From: a candidate division WOR-3 bacterium
GTDB lineage: Bacteria > Hydrothermota > UBA3072 > B12-G15
Assembly: GCA_965649055.1 (NCBI GenBank)
Contig: CBFGJG010000004.1
Location: forward strand, 18,343 to 82,342
Direction: 5' to 3'
DNA length: 64,000 bases
Both the position numbers and the translations under genes were made by a program. Below, piece by piece: positions 26,991 through 54,279 of the stretch (the first letter of the stretch is position 1; each line of letters opens with the position of its first letter). The notes beneath the pieces were generated by a model that did not search any database, had not been told where the DNA came from, and saw only the letters and a program-made list of their open reading frames with translations.

Positions 26991-28264
26991 ATTTCTACAG
27001 GCATACCAAGTAGATATCCTTGACCATAAAGAATCCCGTGTTCCTTCAAAAATTCAAGGTCTCTTTCATTTTCTATTCCTTCTGCAATCATTATTGAACC
27101 AATTTTATTGGAGAACTCAAGCATTGATTTCAAAAGTTCCTGTCTAATAAGGTCTTCTGATATATTTTTTATGAGTGTTTTATCATATTTTAAATATTTA
27201 GGTTTTATCTCTGCTATCCTTTCAAGTGTTGAATAACCTGTTCCTACATCATCAAGTGCTATCTCAAAATTGAGATTCTTTAACTTGTCTATGAATTCAC
27301 CATAAATATTTTTTTCATATATCACAAATTTCTCAGTTATTTCAAATACAATCTTTTTATCATTGGTAATTTCTTTAGAGAAATTTCTTAAAAAGTCCCC
27401 CTTGAACATATTAGGTATAAAATTAGGTGTAACATTAAGAAATAATCTTTTATCTTTTTTTATGTTTTCCGTTTTCATTAAAGCCTTTGAAAGGCAGATT
27501 TTCTCAAGTTCGTTTATCAGCGTGGATTTTGCCGCAAGGCTGAATATAATATCAGGTTCAAAGAAATAAGAATTTTTAGGACCCCTTGATAGTGCTTCAA
27601 AGCCAAATATTTCATTATTAGAAAGTTCATAAATTGGCTGGAAGTAAGTAAAAATATTCTGTTTTTTAATAATATTTTTCAATTCGTTTAAAAGTTCTTC
27701 TTCACTTCTTTTTTCTTTAAAATATGCTGAGAATCTTGCATTTTCAGTTGCCTGATATATTATTCTCTCTATTCTCATCATAGGTTCAAAAGTAAATATC
27801 TTATAACCGAAATAGAAAACTATTTTACTCCAAAGGTTTGAAATTTCTTGATTCACCTTTATATTCAAAAGACATTTCTGTATTTCAGAAATTGTTTTTT
27901 CCGCGAATTCTGAACTGATTTCTTCATTTGTATTTTCTTCCGAGAAGAAGATAAATAACCCGTCACTTTTTATTGATGATATTGCAATTATCGGCGGAAC
28001 CTTAAATGATTTGGATAAGCATTCTTTTACATTTCTCGCAAATAACTTGATTGCATTGTCATAAGCTTCCCATCCATATATCTGCTCAAGCATATTCTCT
28101 CTTCCAATTGTCATATATATACAGCATATACTTCTATTTTTCGTAATCATTCTTCTCAGGTTTTCAAATTCTATGTTCAATGTTGGAAGAGATGTGTTTT
28201 CATCATAGAGGGCACTTTTAAATCGCAGAATATCCGCTTTTAATTTTAAAATTTCCTTATCCAT
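26987..28264 (-). CDS. EAL c-di-GMP phosphodiesterase with a degenerate GGDEF-like N-domain
   Basis: FQPI, GFEALSR, FEITE, LDDVGTGYS, K.DK, AEGIE, GQGY. Confidence 0.9.
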   Translation of the reverse strand: MDKEILKLKADILRFKSALYDENTSLPTLNIEFENLRRMITKNRSICCIYMTIGRENMLEQIYGWEAYDNAIKLFARNVKECLSKSFKVPPIIAISSIKSDGLFIFFSEENTNEEISSEFAEKTISEIQKCLLNIKVNQEISNLWSKIVFYFGYKIFTFEPMMRIERIIYQATENARFSAYFKEKRSEEELLNELKNIIKKQNIFTYFQPIYELSNNEIFGFEALSRGPKNSYFFEPDIIFSLAAKSTLINELEKICLSKALMKTENIKKDKRLFLNVTPNFIPNMFKGDFLRNFSKEITNDKKIVFEITEKFVIYEKNIYGEFIDKLKNLNFEIALDDVGTGYSTLERIAEIKPKYLKYDKTLIKNISEDLIRQELLKSMLEFSNKIGSIMIAEGIENERDLEFLKEHGILYGQGYLLGMPVEI

Positions 28265-28640
28265 TTTCTATCTTCCTGAAAATCTGTTCAATTCTTTTTA
28301 TCAATTCATCAGAGGTAAAAGGTTTACAGATATAATCAATTGCACCTTCCTTAAGACCAATTATCTTATCATGTGCGTCAAGCCTTGCAGTGATAAAAGC
28401 AACAGGTATATCTCTGAAATTTTCATCTGATTTTAACATATTTTTAAAACTGAAACCATCTATTTCAGGCAACATAATATCAAGTAATATCAAATCAACC
28501 CTGTTCTTTTGCAGTATCATCAAAGCATCATTCACATTTGTTGATGTGAATGTGGCATAATTTGCATCATTCAACACCATAGAAACAAAGTTTAAAATAT
28601 CTTCTTCATCATCAATTATTAGTATTTTTTTTCTTTTCAT
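28257..28640 (-). CDS. Single-domain response regulator receiver
   Basis: ILIIDD, LLDIMLP, FITA, KPF. Confidence 0.92.
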   Translation of the reverse strand: MKRKKILIIDDEEDILNFVSMVLNDANYATFTSTNVNDALMILQKNRVDLILLDIMLPEIDGFSFKNMLKSDENFRDIPVAFITARLDAHDKIIGLKEGAIDYICKPFTSDELIKRIEQIFRKIENG

Positions 28641-30108
28641 AAATTTCTCCCGGTATCTTAAAAATAATATGGAATCCTATTTTATCATTTTTAGCCCAGA
28701 TTTTACCATTATGTGCTTCTATAATACTCTTACATATTGAAAGTCCGAGACCCATTCCACCATATTTTCTGCTTGAATCAACATCAATCTGGTAAAATGG
28801 TTCAAATATCATACTGAGTTTTTTTTCTGGTATTTTTTCGCTATTGTTGTAAAAATCAAATAAAACAAATTCTCTGCCATTCTCATTCAATAATGAGTTA
28901 TTAATCTTAATAAACCCATTTTCAGGTGTGAATTTTGAAGCGTTAAGGAGTATATTTTCGAAGACATTCTTTATTTTTTCTTTATCAACTATACAATCTT
29001 TTACTTCAAGATTAATCTCTGTTTTTATATTTTTATTTTCAAGATATGGTGAAAAATCCTGCAATGTATCTTTAATTATCTTTTCAATATTTGTTTTTTC
29101 AGGTTCTATTTTTACACCTTCAAGAAGGTATTGGGAGATTTGTAATAAGGAATGTATGTCTTTATTCAGTCTTTCAAGGTTTCTTTTTATAATCTCAAGA
29201 CTTTTCCTCTGCTTTTCATTGGGTTCTCCAAGTTTACCCTTCAAAAGGTAATCAACATAACCTAAGGATGCAGTTAAAGGCGTTCTCAATTCGTGGGAAA
29301 TATTCGCAATCATCTGTGTCTTTTGCTTATCCCTTTCTTTCAGCTCGTTTACTAAGTTTTTTAAATCCATAATATTTATTCTTATCCTTTCAGACATAAA
29401 ATTAAAAGTATCGGCTAATTCCTGGAATTCATCATTTGTCTTTATCTTTATAACCCTGGAAAAATCACCTTTTGCTATTTCTTTAGCAGCGTTTTCAAGA
29501 ATTGAAATATTAGAGGTTATAAGACCTGAGAGGAATATAGAGATTATTGCGCTTAGTATTAATATAATGAATAGGATTGTGGAAGAAATTTTTATAATGT
29601 TACTGATTTCTTTCTTTAACCTGTCATATGAGAAATAATAAACAATAGAAAATCTATGAACACCAAATCCATCAATATAAGGGTATATTATTCTAATATC
29701 TGAACTTTTTAATGTTTTAGGTTCAAGCGATTTTAAGTTGTCTAAAACAAACTTATCGTCAGTATATCTTATTTTCTGGTTTGTTGGCATGCTTGACTCG
29801 GTAAAATCAGAATCAAAGAGTATTTCACCATATAAATCAATAATCTGCAATTTTTTTAAGTCATTTGAAAGGGTAATATGTGTTATTATGAATTCTCTGA
29901 ATTTGAAATATAAACTATGGTAATATCTGATATACATATCGGCAAATTTATCATAAGTTATCCTTGAGAAAGTCTCAGCATTTTTATAAAATTCTTCCTT
30001 TAATTGTCTATATGATGAAAGTAAAAAAGATATATAAAGTATAACATATATAATTATCACTCCCAGAGTTATTATTATACTCACTTTGTATCTAAAAGGT
30101 ATCTTCAT
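28612..30108 (-). CDS. HAMP sensor histidine kinase
   Basis: Two TM segments, HAMP, SHELRTPL, NASKF, FEPFYQ, GMGLGL. Confidence 0.93.
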   Translation of the reverse strand: MKIPFRYKVSIIITLGVIIIYVILYISFLLSSYRQLKEEFYKNAETFSRITYDKFADMYIRYYHSLYFKFREFIITHITLSNDLKKLQIIDLYGEILFDSDFTESSMPTNQKIRYTDDKFVLDNLKSLEPKTLKSSDIRIIYPYIDGFGVHRFSIVYYFSYDRLKKEISNIIKISSTILFIILILSAIISIFLSGLITSNISILENAAKEIAKGDFSRVIKIKTNDEFQELADTFNFMSERIRINIMDLKNLVNELKERDKQKTQMIANISHELRTPLTASLGYVDYLLKGKLGEPNEKQRKSLEIIKRNLERLNKDIHSLLQISQYLLEGVKIEPEKTNIEKIIKDTLQDFSPYLENKNIKTEINLEVKDCIVDKEKIKNVFENILLNASKFTPENGFIKINNSLLNENGREFVLFDFYNNSEKIPEKKLSMIFEPFYQIDVDSSRKYGGMGLGLSICKSIIEAHNGKIWAKNDKIGFHIIFKIPGEIYEKKKNTNN

Positions 30109-31565
30109 TTTATAACCTTTATTTCCTTTAACATTAATGTTTTATCCAGCCTTGGAGTCCATTTTATTCTTTTTGAAAGAACAAAAACATCCTTTTCCCA
30201 AACTATTGGTATCTTTGGTATATCTTCAAGTATTAATCTCTGAACATATTGTAATCGTTCCAGAATGAGGTTTTCATCTGTTGTTCTTGAAAGTTCTTCC
30301 ATAATACTATCAGCATATTTATTCGAATAACCAATATTATTCTGTGTCCCATATCCTTTTTCAGGTTCGTATGTGTGGAAAGAATTTGAAATAATGCTAA
30401 TACCATCATATGAAGTGGGAATCCTTGCAATAATATATAAATATGATTCTCTTTTTTCGACTTTTTCCCAGTACTTATCAGATGGGAGGGGATTCTTTTT
30501 TATTTTTAAACCTATATTTTCAAGGTCTTCTATTATACCTTCTGCTATTGGTGCCCTTGCATACGAATAGTCAAATGTAAGTTCAGGAATATTGTTAATC
30601 TTAGATATAATTTTTTTTGCTTCTTCAGGGTCGAATTTAATAGGTTCAATTGAAAAATCAAATCCGAAAACACCAGGAGTGAAAAATTGATTAGCAGGAG
30701 TTGCAAAACCATTATATACAGTGCTGCATAATCTTTCCCTGTTTATACCTATATTTAATGCGTATCTAAAATCTTTCTTACTGAAAGGGTATTTTTTAAG
30801 GTTAAATTCAAGGAATCTTATTCCTATTCCCGGGGTTGTAACAACCTTTCCGTATTTTGAAAACTCATCAACCTGAGAAAGTGGAACATAAGATACAATA
30901 TCAGCAATACCTTCTTTTAATAATCTTAACTTTTCATTGGAATCACGTATATAAAGATATTTTGCCCTTGAAACATCCGGTCTTTTATTCCAGTATTTAT
31001 TATTCCTTATAAGTATGAGTTCTTTATCATCCATTTTTTCAAATCTGTAAGGGCCTGTTCCACAAGGGGTATTTTCCATTGGGTCATATCCTTCTGGAAT
31101 TATAAATACGATGGAAATATCAAATAAAAGCGTTGAGTATGGATATTTCGTCTTTATAACAATCTTATTTTCATTTATTTTATAAATTGTATCAACCCTA
31201 TCTTTGTAAATATTAATCTCCGAGTTTGGAATTTTAAGAGGTCTTTTTAAAGAATAAATTACATCTTCAGGTTTCAATAATTTTCCATTATGAAAATATA
31301 CGTTTTTTCTCAATGTGAATACCCAGGTCAAACTATCTTTCTTCTCCCAGTATTCTGCAAGGACACCTGTTATTTTCATATTTGCGTCAAATCCAACAAT
31401 TGGTTCGTATATATTCGAAAGAATTGAAATAACAGGTAGTTCACGGACTGCATGCGGTTCAAGGGTTGATGGCGGTGAATCTATAATGATAGTAATTTCA
31501 TTTTTTTTATTGTTACATCCTGAAAAAATAAATATTATTAAAAGGATAAATAGATAATATCTCAC
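30105..31565 (-). CDS. Family-5 (DppA/OppA-like) solute-binding lipoprotein
   Basis: Start set at GTG 31565 (SD GGAGG; ATG 31577 is an alternative). Lipobox FSGC; LAE.W, F.LR..V.FHNG, GTGPY. Confidence 0.85.
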   Translation of the reverse strand: MRYYLFILLIIFIFSGCNNKKNEITIIIDSPPSTLEPHAVRELPVISILSNIYEPIVGFDANMKITGVLAEYWEKKDSLTWVFTLRKNVYFHNGKLLKPEDVIYSLKRPLKIPNSEINIYKDRVDTIYKINENKIVIKTKYPYSTLLFDISIVFIIPEGYDPMENTPCGTGPYRFEKMDDKELILIRNNKYWNKRPDVSRAKYLYIRDSNEKLRLLKEGIADIVSYVPLSQVDEFSKYGKVVTTPGIGIRFLEFNLKKYPFSKKDFRYALNIGINRERLCSTVYNGFATPANQFFTPGVFGFDFSIEPIKFDPEEAKKIISKINNIPELTFDYSYARAPIAEGIIEDLENIGLKIKKNPLPSDKYWEKVEKRESYLYIIARIPTSYDGISIISNSFHTYEPEKGYGTQNNIGYSNKYADSIMEELSRTTDENLILERLQYVQRLILEDIPKIPIVWEKDVFVLSKRIKWTPRLDKTLMLKEIKVIK

Positions 31566-31665
31566 AAATTCCTCCATTAATATTTTAATAATATTTTTTC
31601 TTATGTCAATAATTTCCTTGAAAAATAAAAAATTTATCATATTATTTATAAAAAACGGAGGTTTT

Positions 31666-31893
31666 ATGAAAATTGCAATAGAGGATATTATAAAAAGAAT
31701 AAACAGTAAATACAAGGCAACGGTTATTATAGCACTTGATGCAGAAAGATTGAACAAAATCAGGAAAGAAACAAATTTTATGAGCGAGGTTGAAACACCG
31801 GAAGAGAAAACGATAATTCAGGCTATGAGAAGATTCATAGAAGGTAAGATACAATACAAATTTATTGAAGATGAACAGGATACTAAAAAATAA
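31666..31893 (+). CDS. rpoZ: RNA polymerase omega subunit
   Basis: SD GGAGG; INSKY...A..A..LN...K....A.....GKI pattern; directly upstream of coaBC. Confidence 0.75.
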   Translation: MKIAIEDIIKRINSKYKATVIIALDAERLNKIRKETNFMSEVETPEEKTIIQAMRRFIEGKIQYKFIEDEQDTKK

Positions 31894-42593: not shown

Positions 42594-43064
42594 ATGAAAA
42601 TAGAGTTTATAAAAAAGCTTATTGAATTACTTGAAAATAGTAATATTAATGAGATAGAGATAAAGAGGTTCGGGACATCTCTAAGAATAGTAAAATTAAA
42701 AAATCAGATTATCACAAATTTTCAGGAAACACCAAATCCGGTGAAGGTTCAGACACATCAGGTGAAAGAAAAGGAAGAAAAGGTAGAAACGAAGAAAGAA
42801 GAAGTAAAAGAGAAGAAAGATTATCTTATGATTAAATCTCCGATGGTTGGAACATTTTACAGGGCACCGGCACCAGATGCCCCACCTTTTGTTGAACTCG
42901 GTGATATTGTAAAACCAGGCCAGACTGTTTGTATTATTGAAGCTATGAAGATAATGAATGAGATAAAATCAGAATTTAGCGGTAAAATTGTTGAAATACC
43001 TGTTAAAAATGAACAACCGGTTGAATTTGGGCAGGTTTTATTCCTTCTTGAACCATTAAAATAG
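42594..43064 (+). CDS. accB: Biotin carboxyl carrier protein
   Basis: [22 protein letters not shown]. Confidence 0.96.
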
Positions 43065-43072
43065 GAGGGAAA

Positions 43073-44167
43073 TTGGAGCTTAGACCCATTCTTGAAAAGA
43101 TGGTAAAGATGGATGCTTCAGACCTGCATTTAAAAGTAGGTCTTCCACCTATTTTAAGGGTGCATGGAAGACTTACCCCTTTAAATATGCAGCCGCTTAC
43201 CAATGATGACCTGAAGGAAGCTGCTGCTTCACTTATGACAAAACAACAACAGGAAGAATTTGTAAAGAGGAAGGAAGCTGATTTTGCTGTAGGATTGAAA
43301 GGTCTTGCAAGATTCCGTGTGAACTGTTATGTCCAGAGGGGAAGTATTGCAATCGCGATGAGGACAATACCACACGTGATAAGGTCAATTGATGAGTTAA
43401 ACCTTCCTCAAATCCTGAAAGATATTTCCCTTTATCCAAGAGGGCTTATACTCGCAACGGGAACAACCGGTTCAGGTAAGTCAACAACACTTGCTGCAAT
43501 GATTGAATACATAAATCAGAATGTCTCGAAACATATCATAACAGTTGAGGACCCTATAGAGTATCTTTTCAGGGATAAAAAATCAGTGATTTCTCAAAGA
43601 GAGGTAGGAACAGATACATATTCTTTTGCAGATTCACTGAGGTATATTTTAAGGCAGGACCCTGATGTTATAATGATAGGTGAGATAAGGGACGTTGATA
43701 CAATGGATACTGCTCTAAAAGCAGCTGATACAGGCCATCTTGTTCTTTCAACATTACACACCTTAAATGCTGCTGAAACAATAAACAGGATTATAAGTTT
43801 TTATCCACCACACCAGCAACAACACATAAGGGTTTTACTTTCTGCAACACTTGTAGCTGTTGTATCATTGAGACTGCTCCCGCTTAAAGATAAAACTGGA
43901 ATGATACCTGCAACAGAGATTCTTATCTCAACACCTACAATAAGGGAATATCTACTTGACCCTGTTAAAACATTGAAGATTCCACAGGCAATTACGGAAG
44001 GCAGTCAGTATGGAATGCATTCATTTGACCAGTGTATAATGGATTATTATAAAAGGGATTTGATTGATTATGAAACAGCTATAAACAATTCGACTAATCC
44101 TGATGAATTCAAGATGAAGTTGAAAGGAATAGAAACATCCACTGAAGCAGGTTGGGGCGGGGCTTGA
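43073..44167 (+). CDS. pilT: Type IV pilus retraction ATPase, PilT/PilU family
   Basis: [54 protein letters not shown]. Confidence 0.9.
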
Positions 44168-45507
44168 GTATAAAAAAATTACTTGTTGCAAACAGAGGTG
44201 AAATAGCGGTAAGAATTATAAGGGCTGCAAAAGAACTCGGAATAAAGACTGTTGCAGTATTTTCTGAAGGTGATGAGAATTCCCTCCATATATTCCTTGC
44301 AGATGAGTCCGTAAGAATAGGTCCAGCAAACCCAAAGAAAAGCTATCTTAATATACCAATGATAATAAGTGCAGCTGAGGTTTCAGGAGCTGATGCAATC
44401 CACCCGGGATATGGTTTTCTTGCTGAAAATCCCGTTTTTGCAGATACATGCATTGATAGTGGTTTTATATTCGTTGGTCCTTCCCCTGATGCAATAAGAA
44501 AAATGGGTGATAAATCAGAGGCAAAGAAGACAATGAAGCAAGCTGGTGTTCCTGTTGTCCCGGGGAGTGAAGAACCTTTAAAAAATGTTGAGGAGGCAAT
44601 AGAGATTTCAAAAGAGATTGGTTTCCCTGTAATTCTAAAGGCAGTGAGCGGTGGTGGCGGAAAGGGTATGAGGGTTGCTTACAATGAAAAAGAACTTTAT
44701 GCTAATTTTAGAATGGCTTCTTCAGAGGCAGAAGCAGCATTCGGTGACGGAAGAATATATATAGAGAAGTATATTGAGAACCCAAGACATATTGAGATTC
44801 AGGTCATGGGTGATATGATGGGTAATGTTGTTCATCTTGGAGAAAGAGAATGTTCAATCCAGAGAAAGCATCAAAAATTACTCGAAGAGGCACCTTCCAC
44901 CATTGTGGATGAGAAAATGAGGGAAGAAATGGGAAGGATAGCTGTGAAAGGTGCAAAGAAAATAGGATATTATTCAGCAGGAACAATGGAATTTATTGTG
45001 GATAAGAATAAAAATTTCTATTTTATGGAAATGAACACAAGAATACAGGTTGAACATCCTGTTACTGAAATGGTGACAGGTTTTGATCTTGTAAAAGAGC
45101 AGATACTGGTTGCAATGGGAGAGAAACTGAGTTTTACTCAGAAGGATATAAGATTTAAAGGACATGCTATTGAGGCAAGGATAAATTCTGAAAGTCCCGA
45201 GAATGGTTTCATACCCAGTGTCGGAAAGATAAATTCAATTCATATACCGGGTGGTAATGGTGTAAGGATTGACACACATCTTTATCATGGATACAATATT
45301 CCACCATATTACGATTCCCTTATAATGAAGATAATTACACACGGAAGGGATAGGAATGAGGCGATTCTGAGGATGAAAAGGGTTCTTGATGAAATAATTA
45401 TAGATGGTGTCCAGACAACGATAGGACTTCATAAAAAAATTCTTGAAAACGAAAACTTTCTAAAAGGTGAAATAAATACAAATTTTCTACAAACTATGGG
45501 TATATAA
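44164..45507 (+). CDS. accC: Biotin carboxylase
   Basis: [52 protein letters not shown] start overlaps the pilT stop. Confidence 0.96.
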
Positions 45508-46103
45508 TGTCTATAATAAGATTTGGTTCAAGGGAAATAACCTGTAAGATAGTTTACTATGGACCCGGAAGGGCAGGAAAGACCACCAATCTCCAGTATC
45601 TTTATTCGAGGATTCCAGCAACAAGAAGGAGCGAACTTGTATCCCTTGCAACGGAAACAGATAAAACGCTTTTTTTCGATTATATGCCAATAGATGTAGG
45701 CAATTACAGGGGTTTTACAACAAAATTTCAGCTTTATACAGTTCCGGGACAGGTTTTTTATGAGGATACGCGAAAACTTGTTCTAAAAGGAGCTGATGGT
45801 ATCGTTTTTGTAGCAGATTCTCAAAGAGAAAGATTAGAAGATAATATTTTCAGTCTTGAGAACATGTTTCAAAATATGGAAGAAAATGGAATAGATATAA
45901 ACGATACCCCTATCGTTCTACAATATAACAAGAGGGACATGAACGATATTTGCACTATAGATGAGTTACAGGAAATATTAAATAAGAATTTCCTGTATGA
46001 ATACTATGAGGCAATAGCAATAAAGGGAGTGGGTGTTCCTGAAACTTTTAAGGCAATAGGAACACTTGTTCTTAAAAATTTAAGGGAGAAATTAGGTCTA
46101 TGA
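45507..46103 (+). CDS. mglA: MglA-family small GTPase
   Basis: KIVYYGPGRAGKTTNL, TETDKTLFFD, LYTVPGQVFY, FVADSQ, QYNKRD. Confidence 0.93.
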   Translation: MSIIRFGSREITCKIVYYGPGRAGKTTNLQYLYSRIPATRRSELVSLATETDKTLFFDYMPIDVGNYRGFTTKFQLYTVPGQVFYEDTRKLVLKGADGIVFVADSQRERLEDNIFSLENMFQNMEENGIDINDTPIVLQYNKRDMNDICTIDELQEILNKNFLYEYYEAIAIKGVGVPETFKAIGTLVLKNLREKLGL

Positions 46104-47830
46104 TTGAGGATACAGGACAATTTGATGATTTAAGGGTAGTTTTATCAAAACCCGAAAATTATGGTGTTGTTTATATTTACGGGGTAAACCAGGAAATTCT
46201 TTCGAATATAGAATATTTTATAAATTCTTCAAAGATAGTATTTTTAAAAATAAATGCAGAAAAATTAAAAGAAATTGACTTTTCGGGTATTGAATTACCA
46301 AAAGTTGTTCTGCTCCAGGATATTGAATATTTTGTAAGGAATCCTGAGGAGGAAAAATATTTTATCACATTAATTGAGAAATGCCTCAGGGAGAAAAAAC
46401 AACTATTGATAACAGGTATGTTTTCACTATCGGAGATAAAATTATCTGATAACGCAATGTTATATCTAAAACATATCTTCACGATTAAATTTGAACATAA
46501 AGACAAAAAAGGTGATCAGTTCACTGAAATTATAAAGACAATAGAACCTGATATACCTGAAATAAAACCCGAAAACAATATTGTTGAGGAATTGAGAGAA
46601 GAATATAAGGCAAAAATGTATATTTGGAAGATGAAGGGGTTTAACACATCAAGGATTGAAAGTGTTATTGATGGTAATATAGAGGCGATAACGAGTGAAT
46701 TCATTTCTTTCACAGCAGATATACAGAGGCTTATTGAACTGCAGAAAAGGTATGGAATATTGGAACTTCACATGATACCCGAGAAGGAAAAAATAGATAT
46801 AGAGAAAAAATTGTTTGACCCTGATAGCATATCAGAATTAGAGTACAAGATTTCTTTCTATGAGAAGAGGGCAACATTAAGAAACCAATTTAAATTAATG
46901 CTCTCCTGGGATGAAAGAATGAATAGTGTTGAAGTTGATGAGAGCAATTCACAAATAGTTAGATTTATAACAAGCTTCTCACTTGAACCATATAAATATA
47001 AAGGTTTGAACCTTATAAGGGGCGATAGAGGATTTGGTAAATCCACATACCTTAATATTACAGGAATACAATTATTTGAAAATTTTAGAAATCTTGTTAT
47101 AGCATTTATAACACCACATTCAATATTAAATATTGATGATTTTCTAAATGACCTTTCATATTTTGATATCGCACTTTTCGATGATATTGATAAGGTAATT
47201 TTTAGATATCAAAAGATTTTTTCAGATGATATACTCAGAATAATTTTTGACATGCCTGTCCTTGCTACTTTTACAAGCAAAGGATTTATCGATACTGTAA
47301 AACATTTTGAAATAAAGAATAATTTTGAAATTAAAGAACCCGGGATTAAAATAAAAAGAAAGATGATAGAAAAAATAACAAACGATAGCAAGATTATTGA
47401 AATGGCAAACGAAGAAGTCCAGAAGATAAAAGGCGGTTTTTATGAAATAGAAAACCTGATATCAAATTTATATTACGAAAAGAAAGAAGAATTACCCTCA
47501 AAGGAAATAATTGAAGAAAAAAAGGAAGTCGTTGAGATTAAGACAGAAGGTGAAGAAACGATAACAGAAATTCCAGAAAAAATAGATTTTAAAGAAGAAA
47601 TCAAAGAAGAGATAAAAGAAGAAATAGAAGAAAAATCGGAAGTTTCTGAAAAAATTATTGAAGAGAAGAAAGAAATTCAGGTTCCAAAGATCGAAAAGAT
47701 AGAAGAAGAATTACTCGAAGAAAAAGTAGCACCTGAAGAAACTAAAGAAGTTAAGAAAATAGAGTTTGTTAGCGAAGGTATAGTAATGGATATAGAAAAT
47801 TATAGTTTAAGGATACAGAAGGAGCTGTAA
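46100..47830 (+). CDS. Protein with tandem DnaA/Hda-like AAA+ domains and a Glu/Lys-rich tail
   Basis: Second module GDRGFGKS and IALFDDID; first, degenerate module VVLLQDIE...KQLLITG. Confidence 0.6.
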   Translation: MIEDTGQFDDLRVVLSKPENYGVVYIYGVNQEILSNIEYFINSSKIVFLKINAEKLKEIDFSGIELPKVVLLQDIEYFVRNPEEEKYFITLIEKCLREKKQLLITGMFSLSEIKLSDNAMLYLKHIFTIKFEHKDKKGDQFTEIIKTIEPDIPEIKPENNIVEELREEYKAKMYIWKMKGFNTSRIESVIDGNIEAITSEFISFTADIQRLIELQKRYGILELHMIPEKEKIDIEKKLFDPDSISELEYKISFYEKRATLRNQFKLMLSWDERMNSVEVDESNSQIVRFITSFSLEPYKYKGLNLIRGDRGFGKSTYLNITGIQLFENFRNLVIAFITPHSILNIDDFLNDLSYFDIALFDDIDKVIFRYQKIFSDDILRIIFDMPVLATFTSKGFIDTVKHFEIKNNFEIKEPGIKIKRKMIEKITNDSKIIEMANEEVQKIKGGFYEIENLISNLYYEKKEELPSKEIIEEKKEVVEIKTEGEETITEIPEKIDFKEEIKEEIKEEIEEKSEVSEKIIEEKKEIQVPKIEKIEEELLEEKVAPEETKEVKKIEFVSEGIVMDIENYSLRIQKEL

Positions 47831-49428
47831 TGGCTATAAAGGGTTCATTAAAGGCAGCTTCTCTACCAGATGTGATACAGATGCTTTCTGTTGGAAGAAA
47901 ATCAGGTGTTCTTAGTGTAACAAATGGAGAAATATTCATATTCATATATTTTGAAAAAGGTAAAATTACAGGTCTCGATTCAGTTAACAGACAATACAGG
48001 ATAGGGGAATTGCTCATAAAGAATGGTAAGATAACAGAGGAACAGCTTGAAAGTGCACTATTAGTTCAGAAAGAAAACAAAGATAAATTACTTGGCGAGA
48101 TATTACTTGAGATGAAATTTATCGATGAGGATATATTAAAAAATGCAATAACAGAACAGGTTAAAGAAGGGCTTTACAGTGCATTTTCATGGGAAGATGG
48201 ATATTTCAGCTTTGAACCAGGGGAAAGCAAGGTAAAAAAAGTAGGTAAAATCTCAATTGATGCACAGGACCTTTTACTTGAAGCAGCAAGGATAGTTGAC
48301 GAGTTAAGTATAATAGAATTACCTGGATATTCTGATATCCTTTTAAAGACAAAAACAGATACTGATGGTCTTAACGAAAAAGAGAAAGAGATTATAAATC
48401 TTATAGATGGGAAAAAGACTATGGAAAATATCCTTGATGAGACAAGAATTGATGAATTTGAAGCGATGAAGATTATTGGCAAATTATTACAAAAGGGATA
48501 TATAAAAGGCTTGAAACAAACTTCTATACCGATAGAAAAGGCAATGGCGAAGATATCAGAGCATGAAAACCTTGGTATAGCATTTTTATATATGGAGATG
48601 TTCACCGAGGCGGAAAGAGAGTTTAGAAGAATACTTGAGATTGATCCTTTAAATGTTAAGGCAAAATTCTTCATAAGTATAATAAAATTTTTCAAAAATG
48701 ATATTGATTCTGCTATTAGTCTTACTAAAGAGATAATAAATATGAACAATTTTTATCCATCTGTTTATGCAAATCTTTCTGTTTTTTATGAAAAGAAAGG
48801 CGAACTTGATGAAGCATTAAATATTATTGATGAAGGGCTTAAAAATTGGCCAGAAAATTCTAAGTTATTATTAAATAAGTTAATTATAAAAATAAAGAAA
48901 AACGAGATTGAGAATTTAAAAGAGATATTTGAGAAAATAAAAGAAACGGAGATAAACAATCCTGTTTTCTATTTTTATTACGGAATATATGAATGGAAGA
49001 ATAAAAATTTGAATAATGCAATAAATATAATGCTTGAAGGTCTCAAGATTAATCCACAATTTCCCGAATATTACAATAATCTCGGCAGGTTCTACGAAGA
49101 AAGTGAAGAATACGAAAAGGCTGAAGCAATGTTTAAAAAGGCAATAGAAATAAAAAGTGATTACATCCCCGCAATTAAGAATATAGGTGATTTTTACTAT
49201 AAAAATGGATACTATTCACTTGCAAATGAGCAGTATGAGAAATTGACCAGTCTAAACTACAGTGATGCAGAGGTTTACTTTAAGATGGGAAACATTGCTC
49301 TTAAGAAGGGCGATTTCCACGATGCATATAAATTATGGAGTGAAGGATTAAATGTTGAACCTGATAATGAACTTTTGAAAAGGAATATAGAAATTCTTAA
49401 GAAAGATTATGGATTTGGAACTATATAG
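47830..49428 (+). CDS. DUF4388 (PATAN-like) plus TPR protein
   Basis: MAIKGSLK..SLPDVIQML...KSGVL, IYFEKG, RIGELL, W..GYFSF, LLLEAAR..DE; C-terminal TPRs. Confidence 0.85.
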   Translation: MAIKGSLKAASLPDVIQMLSVGRKSGVLSVTNGEIFIFIYFEKGKITGLDSVNRQYRIGELLIKNGKITEEQLESALLVQKENKDKLLGEILLEMKFIDEDILKNAITEQVKEGLYSAFSWEDGYFSFEPGESKVKKVGKISIDAQDLLLEAARIVDELSIIELPGYSDILLKTKTDTDGLNEKEKEIINLIDGKKTMENILDETRIDEFEAMKIIGKLLQKGYIKGLKQTSIPIEKAMAKISEHENLGIAFLYMEMFTEAEREFRRILEIDPLNVKAKFFISIIKFFKNDIDSAISLTKEIINMNNFYPSVYANLSVFYEKKGELDEALNIIDEGLKNWPENSKLLLNKLIIKIKKNEIENLKEIFEKIKETEINNPVFYFYYGIYEWKNKNLNNAINIMLEGLKINPQFPEYYNNLGRFYEESEEYEKAEAMFKKAIEIKSDYIPAIKNIGDFYYKNGYYSLANEQYEKLTSLNYSDAEVYFKMGNIALKKGDFHDAYKLWSEGLNVEPDNELLKRNIEILKKDYGFGTI

Positions 49429-50179
49429 TCTTATGAAAACTATAAAAAATTTACTGGATTTCGATCCTATGAATTATAAGGAAAAACCTTTTAAAAGAAG
49501 AATAAGGGTAAGAATGAGGGCACTTGGGTTTGAAACATACAAAGAGTACGAGGAATATCTTAAAAATAATATAGAAGAACAGATTAAACTTAAAGATACC
49601 CTTACCATTAATGTTAGTAAATTTTTCAGAAACTTAGAGGTATTTGAGATTATAAAAGATGAAATTATACCTAAGATTAAAGAACCTGTAAGATGCTGGA
49701 GTGCTGGATGTTCTACAGGTGAAGAACCTTATACAATTGCTATAATACTTAAAGAACTTGGTAAAGAGGGAAGAATAATAGGAACAGATATAGATACAGA
49801 CGCACTTAAAAAAGCGAGGGAAGGCGTATACACTATTTTTTCTATGGACGAGATACCATACCAGTATATTAAAAAATACTTCGATGAGAAAGATGGAAAA
49901 TATATAATAAAAGATTTTATAAAAAATTATGTTACATTCCTTGAACTCGATTTTAAAGATATTGAAAAATTTACAATGAAATTTGATATTATTCTTTGCA
50001 GAAATGTTCTTATATATCTTACAAAAGAATTTCAGGAAAAATTAATAACAAGATTCTATGAATTGCTTGATGAAGGTGGTTTTTTAATACTTGGTATGGC
50101 TGAGACACTTGGTATTGGTAAATATGAATATTTTTTACCTTATAAATTAAAAGAAAGGATTTACAGAAAAAATGGATAA
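49409..50179 (+). CDS. cheR: Protein-glutamate methyltransferase
   Basis: TINVSKFFR, WSAGCSTGEEPY, GTDID, CRNVLIY. Confidence 0.93.
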   Translation: MDLELYSLMKTIKNLLDFDPMNYKEKPFKRRIRVRMRALGFETYKEYEEYLKNNIEEQIKLKDTLTINVSKFFRNLEVFEIIKDEIIPKIKEPVRCWSAGCSTGEEPYTIAIILKELGKEGRIIGTDIDTDALKKAREGVYTIFSMDEIPYQYIKKYFDEKDGKYIIKDFIKNYVTFLELDFKDIEKFTMKFDIILCRNVLIYLTKEFQEKLITRFYELLDEGGFLILGMAETLGIGKYEYFLPYKLKERIYRKNG

Positions 50180-50648
50180 GATATTTGTCAAGATAGCAGA
50201 GATGAAAGCAGGTAAAGCCCCGAGTGTAATTATAACAATGGGGCTTGGTTCATGTGTAGCAGTTTCTTTATATGACAGAGCAAATAAATTTGGAGGGTTG
50301 CTTCACTTTTTACTACCGGAAAATCCTTCTAATGATTCAAATTATTTTAAATACGGGGATAGTGGCATAAAAGAGATGATAAAATATTTTAGAAATAATG
50401 GCTCAAAATTAGAAAATATAGAGGCAAAAATAGTGGGTGGTTCAATTATGTTCACTCAACTTCTAAAAAGCACAGAGAATGCAGTTGGACCAAGAAATGT
50501 TAAGATAGCAAAAGAAATTCTTGAAAAACATAATATAAGGATTGTGAGTGAAGATACTGGCGGTGATTACGGTAGAAGTGTGGAATTTTATCTTGAAACA
50601 GGAGAATTAAAAGTTAGCTCTTATAAAACAGGTATAAAGATTATATGA
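50172..50648 (+). CDS. cheD: Glutamine deamidase
   Basis: GLGSCVAV, HFLLP, AKIVGG, G.RN, DTGG..GR. Confidence 0.92.
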   Translation: MDKIFVKIAEMKAGKAPSVIITMGLGSCVAVSLYDRANKFGGLLHFLLPENPSNDSNYFKYGDSGIKEMIKYFRNNGSKLENIEAKIVGGSIMFTQLLKSTENAVGPRNVKIAKEILEKHNIRIVSEDTGGDYGRSVEFYLETGELKVSSYKTGIKII

Positions 50649-51673
50649 AAACAATAAAGGTCCTTATCGTTGACGATTCTTCTTTTATGAGAAAACTTTT
50701 AAGAGATATACTTGAGGCACATCCTGAAATAAAGGTTGTAGGGATGGCTAAGAATGGGGAAGAGGCAATACAGTTAAACGAAACACTCGAACCCGATGTT
50801 ATTACAATGGATGTAGAAATGCCTGTTATGAACGGAATAGAGGCAGTCCAGAAGATTATGGAATCAAATCCAAAACCAATAATAATGTTAAGTGCACATA
50901 CAAGAGAAAATGCAAAGATAACAATTGAGGCACTTGAGAAAGGTGCGTTTGATTTTGTCCCCAAGCCTGGAGGTGAGGTTTCTACAAACCTTATAAACAT
51001 AAGTGAAGAGATTACCGAAAAGATAAAGGCAGCATACTATGCTAATCTTCCAGCTTTGAGGGAGTCAGTATATTTGTCAAAGATTGAAAAACCAAGGGTA
51101 TCTTCATCCCAAAAAGTTGTTGTTATTGCAAGTTCAACAGGAGGACCAAAAGCTTTATCATACATAATACCTAAAATACCAAAGGATTTTAATTCACCTA
51201 TTATAGTTGTTCAGCATATGCCAGAAGGATTCACATCTGCATTTGCAGAAAGGCTTAAAAGTATAAGTAAATTGAATGTGAAAGAAGCAGAAGATGGTGA
51301 TACAATAAAAAGAGGGAACATATACATTGCACCTTCCGGTTTCCATACAATAATAAACGAAGAAGAAAAGATAGTTCTTACGAGGGATAAACCTATACAT
51401 GGTGTGAGACCTGCAGCTGATAAAACCATGGTATCCGCTGCTAATGTTTTCTTAAATAATACAATCGGAGTTGTTCTCACCGGAATGGGTAAAGATGGCG
51501 CTGTTGGTGTAAAAAGGATTAAAGCAGTAGGTGGTAAAAATATAGCACAGGATGAAAAAACATCAATAATATATGGTATGCCAAAAGCAGCATATGAAAC
51601 AGGATGCGTTGATGAAGTGCTACCACTTGAGAAGATACCGGAGGGCTTGCTCAGGATGGTTTCAGATGATTAA
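50645..51673 (+). CDS. cheB: Receiver plus methylesterase
   Basis: VDDS, MDVEMP; SSTGGP, QHMP, LTGMGKDG, IYGMP. Confidence 0.95.
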   Translation: MKTIKVLIVDDSSFMRKLLRDILEAHPEIKVVGMAKNGEEAIQLNETLEPDVITMDVEMPVMNGIEAVQKIMESNPKPIIMLSAHTRENAKITIEALEKGAFDFVPKPGGEVSTNLINISEEITEKIKAAYYANLPALRESVYLSKIEKPRVSSSQKVVVIASSTGGPKALSYIIPKIPKDFNSPIIVVQHMPEGFTSAFAERLKSISKLNVKEAEDGDTIKRGNIYIAPSGFHTIINEEEKIVLTRDKPIHGVRPAADKTMVSAANVFLNNTIGVVLTGMGKDGAVGVKRIKAVGGKNIAQDEKTSIIYGMPKAAYETGCVDEVLPLEKIPEGLLRMVSDD

Positions 51674-52427
51674 AGAGATAGAAGATATTGTAAGGAAAAT
51701 AAAGAATTCAAAGGATAAAATGGAAATATCAGAAAATATAAAAAGATTTAAAAATCTTTATAACAAATATTTACAGTATCTTGAAGATATGAAAAAAGAT
51801 GTAAACAAGATAGAAGCAACTTTGTCAAGTTCAACTTTCGCTGAAAAACTTGTATTCTCACCTGTTGACGTTCAGACATTGATAGAAAAGGCAAAGAACG
51901 ATATTGTGAAGGGAAATTACAACGATGCAATGAAGAATCTCCATCTCGCTAAAAAAATAGAACCGGAAAATATAAAAGTCTACTCATTACTCGGATGGGT
52001 TCTTCTTGAACTTGAAAAATACGATGAAGCACTTGCAGTATACCAGAAGGTTTTGAAGTTAGATCCATCAAACGAAATAGCAATGGTTCATATTGGTTTT
52101 GTTAATTATAAACTTGGAATTTTTGGTGAAGCAATTGAGAAACTCTCAAGGATAAATAAAGAGGGAAGAAATAAGGAAGCAGTCCTTTATTCCCTACTTT
52201 ATCTTGGCAGGATCTATTTTGAAAGGGAGATGTTCAACGATGCAATAGAGATACTTGAGGAGGCAATATCTTTAGGGCCAAATCTTTTTGAGGCTTACTA
52301 TCTCTTGGGAAAGGCATACCTGGAAAAGGGGGATAGGAAAAAATGTGATGAGATTTGGGAGAAAGCCATTAGTAAAGGTATACAAGATAAATGGGTGGAT
52401 AAGATAAAGGAGGAAAAAAATGGTTGA
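51666..52427 (+). CDS. Coiled-coil plus TPR protein
   Basis: TPR repeats; ATG 51666 overlaps the cheB end. Confidence 0.8.
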   Translation: MIKEIEDIVRKIKNSKDKMEISENIKRFKNLYNKYLQYLEDMKKDVNKIEATLSSSTFAEKLVFSPVDVQTLIEKAKNDIVKGNYNDAMKNLHLAKKIEPENIKVYSLLGWVLLELEKYDEALAVYQKVLKLDPSNEIAMVHIGFVNYKLGIFGEAIEKLSRINKEGRNKEAVLYSLLYLGRIYFEREMFNDAIEILEEAISLGPNLFEAYYLLGKAYLEKGDRKKCDEIWEKAISKGIQDKWVDKIKEEKNG

Positions 52428-53226
52428 AGAATACTGGGGTTTAAGGAGCAAACCATTTTTAAATACGCCTGATTTAAAATTCCTTTTTAGAAGTGAAGAT
52501 TTTAAAGAGGGATATGCAAGGATTATTTATAACATAAACGAGATTAGTGGTGGACTCACCCTTATTACAGGTGAAATTGGTTGCGGGAAAACATATCTTG
52601 CAAATGCGTTGAAAAAAGACCTTACTGAATTCGGTCATAAGGTGATATTTGTAACTAATCCTATATTTACACAGACTGGTTTTGTGAGATGGATTGCTGA
52701 AAATTTTCTCGAACAGGAAAAAGTTCCTTATCAGAAAGTTAAAATTTTTACAGCACTTGAGAATATGCTTAAAGAAAATGCAAATAAGGATAAAAAATAT
52801 ATAGCGATAATAGACGAGGCTCAGATATTAAAGGCTAAGGTCCTTGAAGAAATAAGATTACTGTTGAATATTGAATCAGATGAAAAGAAATTAATTCAGA
52901 TAATATTGCTCGGTCAACCTGAAATAGAAAAAAAGATTGAGAAGATGCCACAGATAAGACAGAGGATTAATATAAGATACCATATAGAACCAATGGATGA
53001 AGAAGAGGCTATATTGTATATTGAACACAGATTAAAGGTTGCAGGTGCAAAAAAGGAAATATTCAATGATGAGGCTAAAAAAACATTGTATAAATTAAGT
53101 GGTGGTATACCCAGGAATATAAATACTCTTGCGCAAAACTCTTTATTTGTAGGCTATAGCCTGAAAAAAGATGTTATAGACAAAGAAATAATAGAAGCAG
53201 TTGCTGAAGATTTAAGGATGGTGTGA
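52420..53226 (+). CDS. ExeA/GspA-family AAA ATPase
   Basis: YWGL..KPF..TPD, GEIGCGKT, IIDEAQ, GQPE, G.PR.IN. Confidence 0.88.
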   Translation: MVEEYWGLRSKPFLNTPDLKFLFRSEDFKEGYARIIYNINEISGGLTLITGEIGCGKTYLANALKKDLTEFGHKVIFVTNPIFTQTGFVRWIAENFLEQEKVPYQKVKIFTALENMLKENANKDKKYIAIIDEAQILKAKVLEEIRLLLNIESDEKKLIQIILLGQPEIEKKIEKMPQIRQRINIRYHIEPMDEEEAILYIEHRLKVAGAKKEIFNDEAKKTLYKLSGGIPRNINTLAQNSLFVGYSLKKDVIDKEIIEAVAEDLRMV

Positions 53227-53227
53227 T

Positions 53228-53875
53228 ATGAAAAAGAAAAAAATAAGTTTCCAGAAAGCAGTTGAAGAAACAAAAAAGGAAGAAGTAGTAGAAAAAGAAG
53301 AGTTAAAAGTTCCTGATAAAGAAAAAATTGAAATGAAATCCGAAAAAGAGGTTAAAGAGATTGAAATCAAAGAAGAAAAAGAAACAAAAAAAGAAGAAAA
53401 GACTGATTTTGTCAAAGAAGGAGAAGAATTAAAGAAAAAAAGAAAAGGTGAAGCGGTGATGGGAATAGCAATCATGAATGAATATTACGCAATACCTATT
53501 GAGGATGTTGTAGAGATAACAGAGGTTAAAATTGTTCCAGCACCTGAAATGCCTGAATTCCTTGATGGAATAACGGAGATAAGAGGGAAGATTATACCTG
53601 TTCTTGATCCAGCAATTTTATTGGGTATAGGGAAACAGGTAAAAGGAAAGGTTATACTTGTTGACATAAGAGGTGAACTGGTTGGACTTAAAGTTACAGA
53701 GATAATTGGTATGATAAAAATAAAAGGAAGAAAGGTTTATTCTTTACCTGAACCACTTTCAAAAATATTTCTTTCAACTGCTTTTGAATTCAACGGGAAA
53801 ATTTTTGGGATTATAGAGCTTTCAAATCTATTAAGGGATGAGTATCTTCAGGAATTGAAAAAGAAGGAAAAATGA
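53228..53875 (+). CDS. cheW: CheW domain protein with a Lys/Glu-rich N-terminal extension
   Basis: YAIPIEDV.EI, P....GI..IRG.IIPV.D, VGL.V. Confidence 0.85.
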   Translation: MKKKKISFQKAVEETKKEEVVEKEELKVPDKEKIEMKSEKEVKEIEIKEEKETKKEEKTDFVKEGEELKKKRKGEAVMGIAIMNEYYAIPIEDVVEITEVKIVPAPEMPEFLDGITEIRGKIIPVLDPAILLGIGKQVKGKVILVDIRGELVGLKVTEIIGMIKIKGRKVYSLPEPLSKIFLSTAFEFNGKIFGIIELSNLLRDEYLQELKKKEK

Positions 53876-54279
53876 AATGCCTCATTTTTTCAATAGGAGG
53901 CTACAATTTCGGTATTAGCATCGATGAGGTGAAAGAGGTAGGAAAACAAAAAAATGCAAAAATTATTTCAAAAGAAAAAGATTTTTCAATCATAAAATAT
54001 AGAGATAAAAATTTCTTCCTATTTGATATCTCAAAGATTTTTTTTCTTTCGGATTCACTTGATAATATAGTTTTTCTTACTAAATTTGAAGACATAGCAT
54101 TCTTGATCGGAAAGATAAAGGGAATACATGATATAAATTTTAAAAATATCTCAAATACAATCTTTGATGTAGAATACATAAAGACTTTCGGTGAAATGGA
54201 AAATGAAACTATTTTTATACTTGATACTGAAAAAATTGTTAAAAGCAACAAGATAAAGAAAATAAAGACTTCAAAATGA
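53872..54279 (+). CDS. Divergent CheW-like protein
   Basis: LIFSIGG..FGI.I..VKEV...YR...FDI...FILD. Confidence 0.65.
   Translation: MKCLIFSIGGYNFGISIDEVKEVGKQKNAKIISKEKDFSIIKYRDKNFFLFDISKIFFLSDSLDNIVFLTKFEDIAFLIGKIKGIHDINFKNISNTIFDVEYIKTFGEMENETIFILDTEKIVKSNKIKKIKTSK

Follow-up and report, generated by a model that had tools for sequence, protein, structure and literature searches.

A gene array for Che-type adaptation and an MglA-type GTPase in a candidate division WOR-3 bacterium, read as half of a split system proposed to steer type IV pili

What do chemosensory adaptation enzymes serve when their gene cluster encodes neither a receptor nor a kinase? This question was raised by ten genes at positions 45507-54279 of a 64,000-nucleotide stretch of DNA (the whole stretch is hereafter called the window) from a candidate division WOR-3 bacterium. 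The window lies on C4, one of the 85 contigs of a 2.08-Mb genome with a completeness of 93.8%. The ten genes encode, in this order, an MglA-like small GTPase paralogue (MglA2), a DnaA-derived AAA+ protein (p576), a PATAN-tetratricopeptide repeat (PATAN-TPR) protein, CheR, CheD, CheB, a TPR protein, an AAA_22 ATPase and two CheW adaptors. The original prediction, made from the window, was a receptor-less pathway without CheA, CheY or MglB. CheA and CheY were found on contig C14, MglB on C23, and methyl-accepting chemotaxis proteins (MCPs) on C6, C16 and C39; since C14, C16 and C23 carry cheA, MCP and mglB genes, the receptor-less reading was given up. The ten genes are likely to be the adaptation (CheR/CheD/CheB), adaptor and GTPase-output half of the genome's single Che system, which, by context and analogy with studied pathways, would steer type IV pili.

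Partner genes on other contigs and in related genomes

The composition of the array agreed with what had been described at first sight. The open reading frame (ORF) list and Pfam gave ten plus-strand ORFs that carry the domains then named and that abut or overlap, with overlaps of 1-20 nt or a spacing of 1 nt. A Pfam scan returned no MCPsignal domain, CheA domains, stand-alone receiver/CheY or Roadblock domain in the other 44 window ORFs scanned, confirming that no MCP, CheA, CheY or MglB is encoded inside the window. In the whole genome, tblastn gave one match each for CheR, CheD and CheB_methylest, and elsewhere only REC-domain paralogues of CheB. A genome-wide search for CheW domains returned four, two of which were those of the window, one a free CheW on C14 and one the P5 domain of the sole CheA, also on C14. 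The minus strand of C14 holds an array in the order 1053-residue MCP-like protein, CheW, CheY, CheA, CheC, 874-residue TPR protein, 324-residue PATAN protein, TPR-Roadblock protein and two further Roadblock proteins. The CheA of this array (577 residues) consists of Hpt, P2, H-kinase_dim, HATPase_c and CheW domains, with a single Hpt and no Response_reg. The core set CheA/W/Y/B/R/C/D is thus present when the window and C14 are taken together.

The genome encodes three clear MCPs, one each on C6, C16 and C39, plus the MCP-like protein of C14 (L010, 12276-15437, minus strand). In the latter, the N-terminal match to MCPsignal was weak (36.6 bits) and the C-terminal match to SBP_bac_5 reached 299.5 bits. 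Because it has no hydrophobic segment, it has the look of a soluble receptor whose sensor binds solutes. A homologue of this protein is encoded divergently beside pilT in four loci, namely L022, L032 and L037, all three deposited as Cloacimonadota, and L034. The MCP on C16, which has 560 residues and about six N-terminal hydrophobic segments and is encoded beside lon, aligned without gaps over 557 residues to the in-cluster MCP of the related locus L014 (37% identity, E 3e-120). Judged by sequence, the C16 MCP is the cluster's own membrane receptor, relocated.

To place the array among its relatives, p576 was used as the most specific marker, and 33 related loci were taken from species-representative genomes; the conservation counts take only loci with enough flank. 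A conserved supercluster of about 20 genes recurs in uncultured lineages whose records bear the names Stahlbacteria, TA06, Cloacimonadota, Edwardsbacteria and UBP2, and the host's own order includes metagenome-assembled genomes (MAGs) deposited as TA06 and Stahlbacteria. The gene order is near-constant, namely pilT-(accC)-mglA-p576-PATAN/TPR-cheR-cheD-cheB-TPR-AAA_22-cheW-[MCP]-cheW-cinA. Relative to p576, MglA was upstream in 27 of 30 loci and the PATAN-TPR protein downstream in all 31, while CheR (28/28), CheD (26/27) and CheB (23/24) accompanied it almost without exception; the TPR gene after cheB is conserved in related loci as well. In L038, L040, L041 and L043, the genes are contiguous as CheA-CheC-TPR-PATAN-Roadblocks-MglA-p576-PATAN/TPR-CheR-CheD-CheB-TPR, in place of the upstream pilT-accC, and in an extension of two fused loci (L047 and L048) CheW-CheY stands in front of CheA. 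The split form, with pilT-accC upstream of mglA, is the commoner one, the fused form being found in 5 of 27 loci. In the present genome, the array is broken exactly at the junction of the MglB-like Roadblock gene with mglA.

The position of the receptor gene in relatives points the same way. In 11 loci, the genes for CheW1 and CheW2 are separated by that for an MCP, which has about 560 residues in relatives; in L019, for example, the cheW genes are 1.7 kb apart, and a 559-residue MCP (MCPsignal, 91 bits) is encoded in this space. Of the 24 genomes of the host's order, 22 gave a match to CheW1, and an MCP directly followed it in 20 of 21 same-order loci of other genomes, including all three of the same family and with L057 as the exception (this count leaves out L073, a weaker second CheW match in one genome). 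Here, cheW1 and cheW2 overlap by 4 nt with no MCP between them. Because the relatives are contiguous and the MCP sits between their CheW genes, we read the window as one half of a split system, that of adaptation, adaptors and GTPase; by gene order, the window array and the C14 array are halves of one unit.

Products of the array and their neighbours

The three adaptation enzymes are CheR methyltransferase (49409..50179, plus strand; Pfam CheR 177.7 bits, plus CheR_N), CheD deamidase (50172..50648, plus; Pfam CheD 100.9 bits) and CheB methylesterase with an N-terminal REC domain (50645..51673, plus; CheB_methylest 220.6 bits). CheD matched Thermotoga maritima CheD (2f9z_C, E 5.8e-30) and keeps GLGSC and His, and full-length CheB matched 6ymz (E 7.5e-73) and 1a2o (E 6.2e-70) and keeps SSTGGP, QHMP and TGMGKDG, all of them the expected active-site motifs. 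That all three enzymes keep their catalytic motifs, as originally stated, is upheld for CheD and CheB by alignment to solved enzymes; CheR was identified by Pfam only. The adaptors CheW1 (53228..53875, plus; Pfam CheW 67.4 bits) and CheW2 (53872..54279, plus; 43.4 bits) both exceeded the Pfam cut-off of 23.5, and CheW2, a divergent second CheW, matched no NCBIfam model. CheW1 has an N-terminal extension of about 75 residues (53228-53460), in which a conserved basic start, MKKKKISFQK here and MKKRKKISF in L014 and L019, is followed by a variable charged linker. The linkers of L014 and L019 are Lys/Gln/Pro-rich, showing that the composition of this tail is not conserved among orthologues. The tail of p576 is likewise variable among orthologues in the alignment and predicted to be disordered in the AlphaFold model. 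With the methylation consensus, no match was found in either tail, and four were found in the C16 MCP, two of them as QQ pairs that would need deamidation. The suggestion that the Glu-rich tails of p576 and CheW are methylation substrates was rejected because they lack consensus sites and their composition is unconserved.

MglA2 (45507..46103, plus), whose start is the last base of the accC stop codon, gave 31.9 bits with Arf and 26.4 bits with Ras, and its residues 1-194 matched solved Myxococcus xanthus MglA (5ymx_A, E 1.9e-71) and the Thermus thermophilus protein 3t12_A (E 3.3e-64). It has the P-loop GPGRAGKT and the motif YTVPGQ with Thr78 and Gln82; YTVPGQ (TxxGQ G3) is kept in MglA2 and in all 27 cluster-linked orthologues, and Thr78 in place of the G3 Asp is a feature of the MglA family (PMC3000849). 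The Arg53 finger has been described as 'absolutely conserved in MglA proteins', and an R53A mutant lost most of its intrinsic hydrolysis and of that stimulated by the GTPase-activating protein (Miertzschke et al., PMC3199381). MglA2 has Lys53 (TETDKTLFF) at this position, for which reason we filed it as an MglA-like paralogue and not as canonical MglA. Among the 27 cluster-linked orthologues, position 53 is Arg in 23 and Gln in 4; since these 23 and the same-family genomes keep Arg, the R53K change appears recent. P-loop position 22 is Arg in most cluster-linked copies (GPGRxGKT) but Leu in the canonical copy on C23 (GPGLGGKT).

This second MglA, 56% identical to MglA2, is encoded directly beside a Roadblock protein that matched solved MglB (E 4e-31), constituting a canonical mglB-mglA pair. 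No Roadblock gene adjoins mglA2 among the window ORFs scanned; the MglB-like Robl150 is on C14, and it adjoins mglA2 only in the fused relatives. Note that one additional ORF of 235 residues lies between accC and mglA in same-family genomes. It was considered as a hidden mglB and rejected, being by eye of the thiamine-phosphate-synthase type.

The gene for p576 (46100..47830, plus) follows mglA2 directly, overlaps it and is translationally coupled to it. The 576-residue product, a tandem AAA+ protein derived from DnaA domain III according to its family profile and AlphaFold model, has no Pfam or NCBIfam match of its own, including Bac_DnaA (PF00308). On the other hand, its homologues gave 50.7-122 bits with Bac_DnaA (L040 122, L014 78, L019 50.7), and the family profile matched domain III of the DnaA structure 8btg with E 6.6e-52 over profile positions 1-227 and Hda with E 1e-15. 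In hhalign, the family aligned to residues 105-339 of the genome's own DnaA with a probability of 99.9%. The early label 'DnaA-like' is thus sustained through the family and not through the protein taken singly. With DnaA and Hda, the family shares homology to DnaA domain III in its N-terminal module; p576 differs from them in lacking DnaA domains I, II and IV, in having its own helical domain of about 110 residues and, in long forms, a second AAA+ module, and in standing in a signalling and not a replication context. The middle domain did not align to DnaA domain IV (residues 340-441) in hhalign, and the true DnaA is encoded on C16.

Within p576, the N-terminal module (1-133) has lost its Walker A motif and lid, reading YIYGV----NQEIL where relatives read GxxGxGKT. 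The second AAA+ module (284-464) keeps Walker A (GDRGFGKST) and Walker B (FDDID), and residues 466-557 form a disordered Glu/Lys-rich linker before a conserved C-terminal helix. Short forms of the family (about 390 residues) comprise the AAA+ and middle domains, to which long forms add the second AAA+ module. All three folded parts of the AlphaFold model have a predicted local distance difference test (pLDDT) score above 90, and Foldseek with the whole model returned generic tandem AAA+ proteins (Rix7, p97) at a template-modelling (TM) score of about 0.25. The family profile matched 200 of the 201 genomes of the phylum, a count that is not specific because true DnaA is matched as well; about 62 of the 201 had E <= 1e-80 across the family-specific region when the table was read manually.

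The middle domain, which we call 'WKMKGF', spans about residues 157-265 (some 110 residues; residues 163-262 correspond to window 46586-46885), and its W, M, K, G, F and LxxLQ residues are invariant. It was modelled as a five-helix unit with a pLDDT of 94. A search of 1.84 billion proteins with its profile gave 289 representatives at E <= 1e-3, and many of these matches (P0024-P0041) are giant proteins of 598-3143 residues with 5-28 tandem copies, for which Pfam has no repeat model. One giant repeat protein begins with DUF835, and another ends in zinc ribbons. The ESM Atlas gave no usable match to the middle domain, and Foldseek against the Protein Data Bank (PDB) gave none at E <= 0.001, the best being E 6.1. 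VIA-align returned middling matches to helical bundles, namely EbhA (Z 7.2, root-mean-square deviation 2.9, 97 aligned), Embp (Z 6.9) and EzrA (Z 5.9). We drew no function from them because such Z scores may reflect only a common arrangement.

The next gene (47830..49428, plus) encodes a PATAN (DUF4388)-MshEN-TPR protein, in which DUF4388 (PF14332) occupies residues 4-159 (113.2 bits, cut-off 25) and the TPRs are C-terminal. A helical insertion at about residues 55-112 is the MshEN-type cyclic di-GMP (c-di-GMP) motif NF053729 (54.5 bits, cut-off 38), and the same residues matched residues 302-360 of T. thermophilus PilF (6f8l_G, E 8.5e-8). From this motif, we propose that the PATAN-TPR protein is a predicted c-di-GMP-sensing adaptor. 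A third PATAN protein of the genome, with 295 residues, is encoded on C35 (L078, 6863-7750, minus) about 4 kb from a gene for a PilB-type ATPase, with grpE-dnaK-dnaJ between. An operon on the minus strand of the window (26987-31757) comprises genes for an SBP_bac_5 protein, a HAMP histidine kinase, a short ORF and an EAL phosphodiesterase. As the PATAN-TPR and PilB proteins carry MshEN motifs, this operon is a possible c-di-GMP input.

The TPR gene after cheB (51666..52427, plus; longest ORF from 51573) was assigned by TPR families and start-codon context; its start is more likely ATG at 51666, which has AGGA upstream and an 8-nt overlap with cheB. The AAA_22 (ExeA/GspA-type) ATPase encoded next (52420..53226, plus; 268 residues; PF13401, 81.6 bits) gave 213 bits with TIGR03015, below the cut-off of 324. 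ExeA/GspA-type ATPases have a C-terminal peptidoglycan-binding domain and an ExeB/GspB partner. In Pfam, the window protein matched only P-loop families, with no peptidoglycan-binding domain, and its neighbours are the TPR protein and CheW; against PDB sequences it gave no match. A second TPR/AAA_22/TPR trio, whose ATPase is 31% identical to that of the window, lies on C59 (L080, 113-3727, minus), and because of it TPR plus AAA_22 looks like a recurring pair.

Housekeeping genes (accBC, cinA and recA) surround the cluster. The ten-gene array is coupled to accC upstream (ending at 45507) and to cinA downstream (starting at 54276). The gene for the type IVa pilus retraction ATPase, pilT (43073..44167, plus; Pfam T2SSE 161 bits; TIGR01420 pilT_fam 456.9 bits, cut-off 319), is inserted between accB and accC (window 42594-45507), upstream in the same gene array, and the order accB-pilT-accC was also found in three same-family genomes. 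Further away, window 3157-6030 encodes a 957-residue protein with Peptidase_C25 (gingipain-type) and CARDB domains.

Chemosensory class and proposed output

We compared the reassembled system with studied Che systems. The C16 MCP and T. maritima TM1143 (2ch7) align at equal length, residues 255-559 of the former with residues 4-308 of the latter (305 residues each), and TM1143 is the archetype of the 44H (44-heptad) MCP class. MCPs of the 44H class go with F1 systems, and the F1 class is associated with flagellar or archaellar genes; the features of this class are reportedly those set out by Wuichet and Zhulin in 2010 and by Alexander and Zhulin in 2007. The present system resembles the F1 systems of Bacillus subtilis and T. 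maritima in the CheA domain order (Hpt-P2-dimerisation-HATPase-CheW), in the set CheW/Y/B/R/C/D and in MCP length. It differs in that no flagellar export gene or flagellin was found and about nine extra genes are embedded in it. Specifically, FlhA (FHIPEP) and Flagellin_N gave no match in this 93.8% complete genome, and FlhA (FHIPEP) none in the 24 genomes of the host's order. A conventional system of known class, which the original prediction had named as the alternative, is borne out in the cheA, MCP and mglB genes found elsewhere; as to class, the core looks F1-like in composition and MCP length, and the system is non-flagellar and carries a large extra module.

Type IV pilus genes, in contrast to flagellar ones, are plentiful: the genome has three PilB-type ATPases with MshEN domains, a pilT-pilC locus, a pilQ-pilO-pilN locus, five pilT-like loci and three secretins, and its type IV pilus set is a full one. 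The output is probably type IV pili and not flagella, an assignment from context and analogy. Like the Frz system of Myxococcus, which acts on the MglA/MglB(/RomR) polarity module, the present genes would combine a Che-type pathway, a Ras-like GTPase and a Roadblock-fold regulator to set the type IV pilus pole, here as read from genes alone; MglA2 is about 60% like M. xanthus MglA, and an MglB-like Roadblock gene precedes mglA2 in the fused clusters. Whereas frz genes and mglBA are unlinked in Myxococcus (PMC4316618), the relatives studied here hold Che and mglA genes in one array. Other differences from Frz are that the CheA has no fused receiver, that CheC and CheD are present, and that the Roadblock proteins number three and the PATAN proteins two, with a DnaA-derived AAA+ protein and an AAA_22 ATPase besides. 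The cyanobacterial Tax/Pix phototaxis systems, which have PatA-type (PATAN-REC) regulators, share a Che-like system with a PATAN output protein that binds PilB1/PilC and sets the direction of pilus-driven movement; in Synechocystis, pilus polarity is set by the PATAN domain, to which PilB1 and PilC bind (bioRxiv 10.1101/2021.06.11.447907). Here, PATAN is fused to MshEN and TPRs and not to a receiver, and an MglA/Roadblock switch and p576 stand among the Che genes. The Pil-Chp system of Pseudomonas aeruginosa is, likewise, a chemosensory system that polarises type IV pili. Its kinase ChpA is a multi-Hpt CheA with a receiver, the CheA of Frz (ACF-type) is also receiver-fused, and Pil-Chp output passes through PilG/PilH. 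The CheA found here has a single Hpt and no receiver, and the output module is GTPase-based.

These comparisons suggest how the system may work. The MCPs (of 44H length and with EE/QQ sites) would signal via CheW and CheA to CheY, and CheR, CheB, CheD and CheC would adapt the receptors in the usual way. The phosphorylation output would act on the Roadblock (MglB-like)/MglA2 switch, setting the nucleotide state or the location of MglA2. MglA2-GTP would then be read by the TPR and PATAN proteins and p576, whereby PilB/PilT/PilC may be placed or activated at one pole and the cell would steer its twitching motility; c-di-GMP could enter as a second input via the MshEN motif of the PATAN-TPR protein. 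The steering of pili is suggested because PATAN binds PilB1/PilC, because SgmX, a TPR protein, acts with MglA to stimulate type IV pili (PMC7519303, PMC7668184), and because Frz acts on MglA/MglB (PMC3441718). As for the link between MglA, methylation and pili that had been proposed for the window, the Che module is indeed encoded with an MglA-type GTPase, and with pilus genes by context; what did not stand is that the link is receptor-free.

Competing readings and the meaning of the array

Several points weigh against a single Che system that steers pili through MglA2. According to Pfam, none of the Roadblock, PATAN or TPR proteins has a receiver domain, so that the link from phosphorylated CheY to the GTPase has no visible carrier. 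The Lys53 residue suggests that the GTPase cycle of MglA2 may differ from that of model MglA. The pilus output is a matter of context and analogy only. Furthermore, pilT is upstream of mglA in only 18 of 27 loci, and some loci, such as L018, L023 and L024, have no AAA_22 gene. The two halves, C4 and C14, lie on separate contigs of an 85-contig MAG-like assembly, and the organism is uncultured, the analysis being one of genes alone.

The alternative that survives best accepts the same split supercluster with an output other than pilus steering, in another polar or cell-cycle process such as division-site or chromosome-related polarity by way of the DnaA-derived ATPase, envelope or secretin assembly by way of the AAA_22 ATPase, or c-di-GMP-dependent surface adhesion or biofilm. 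The derivation of p576 from DnaA domain III would suit such roles, as would the weak likeness of its middle domain to the rod-forming EbhA and EzrA (Z 7.2 and 5.9), the link of AAA_22/ExeA-type ATPases to secretin assembly, and the setting among accBC, cinA and recA with pilT adjacent in only the 18 of 27 loci. However, p576 is without DnaA domains I, II and IV in a genome with a true DnaA on C16; in the sources cited above, the partners established by experiment for PATAN and MglA belong to the pilus motor, and the genome is rich in pilus ATPases. We hence regard a non-pilus output as unlikely.

A functional division between the two halves, in which the window half alone would be an MCP-methylation-dependent regulator of MglA2 with its CheW proteins as scaffolds free of kinase signalling, and C14 would encode a separate CheA-CheY pathway, seemed quite improbable. 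It would fit the prevalence of the split form (fused in only 5 of 27 loci) and the two CheW genes that the window half has of its own. It would also fit a promoter-like site at 45269-45297 (TTGACA, 17-nt spacer, TACAAT; 11/12 positions), which falls within the 3' end of accC, some 210 nt ahead of mglA2. Against these, a single CheA, CheR, CheB and CheD serve all receptors, and CheB keeps the receiver domain, which needs phosphorylation by CheA. In addition, the promoter/terminator scan found such sites to be no more frequent in the region than in shuffles (80 against a mean of 81.9). Finally, a receptor-less pathway complete in itself, where the Glu-rich tails of p576 and CheW and not MCPs would be methylated, demethylated and deamidated by CheR, CheB and CheD, could appeal to the lack of MCP, CheA and CheY in the 64-kb window and to the Glu/Lys-rich low-complexity stretches of p576 and CheW1, but is hardly credible given that MCPs, CheA, CheY and CheC are encoded elsewhere in the genome and contiguously with the cluster in relatives, that 20 of 21 same-order loci have an MCP between their CheW genes, and that the tails have no consensus match against four in the relocated MCP and conserve neither sequence nor Glu content.

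Returning to the preferred reading of one split Che system with a GTPase output, we extend it tentatively to a widely conserved, undescribed Che-to-GTPase pathway of uncultured FCB-type lineages, which we hold to be plausible but short of probable. In this pathway, an F1-like core would have been re-targeted from flagella to a second MglA switch with Roadblock, PATAN-TPR and p576 partners; p576 may be a nucleotide-dependent regulator, effector or polar hub for MglA, its middle domain may be a new repeat module, and hydrolysis by the R53K GTPase would perhaps be supplied or gated by a partner. No paper describing a Che-MglA-PATAN-DnaA-like array was found, the literature searched taking in few subscription journals. 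PMC4316618 reports only an occasional adjacency of MglA to PATAN genes, and the words 'chemotaxis' and 'CheW' are absent from it; PATAN, DUF4388 and MglA do not occur in PMC10782961.

Che routes to non-flagellar outputs are known in few models, namely Frz, Pil-Chp and cyanobacterial Tax, and in these the link to the polarity GTPase MglA is a genetic and indirect one between genes at unlinked loci. The single array of the relatives, with receptor, kinase, adaptation enzymes, Roadblock, MglA, PATAN/TPR and pilus ATPase, would offer a parts list for this missing connection, and it names a candidate new MglA partner, the DnaA-derived ATPase with its previously unannotated repeat domain. For genome annotation, 'orphan' cheR-cheD-cheB-cheW clusters in these candidate phyla would be better read as halves of split systems than as receptor-free pathways.

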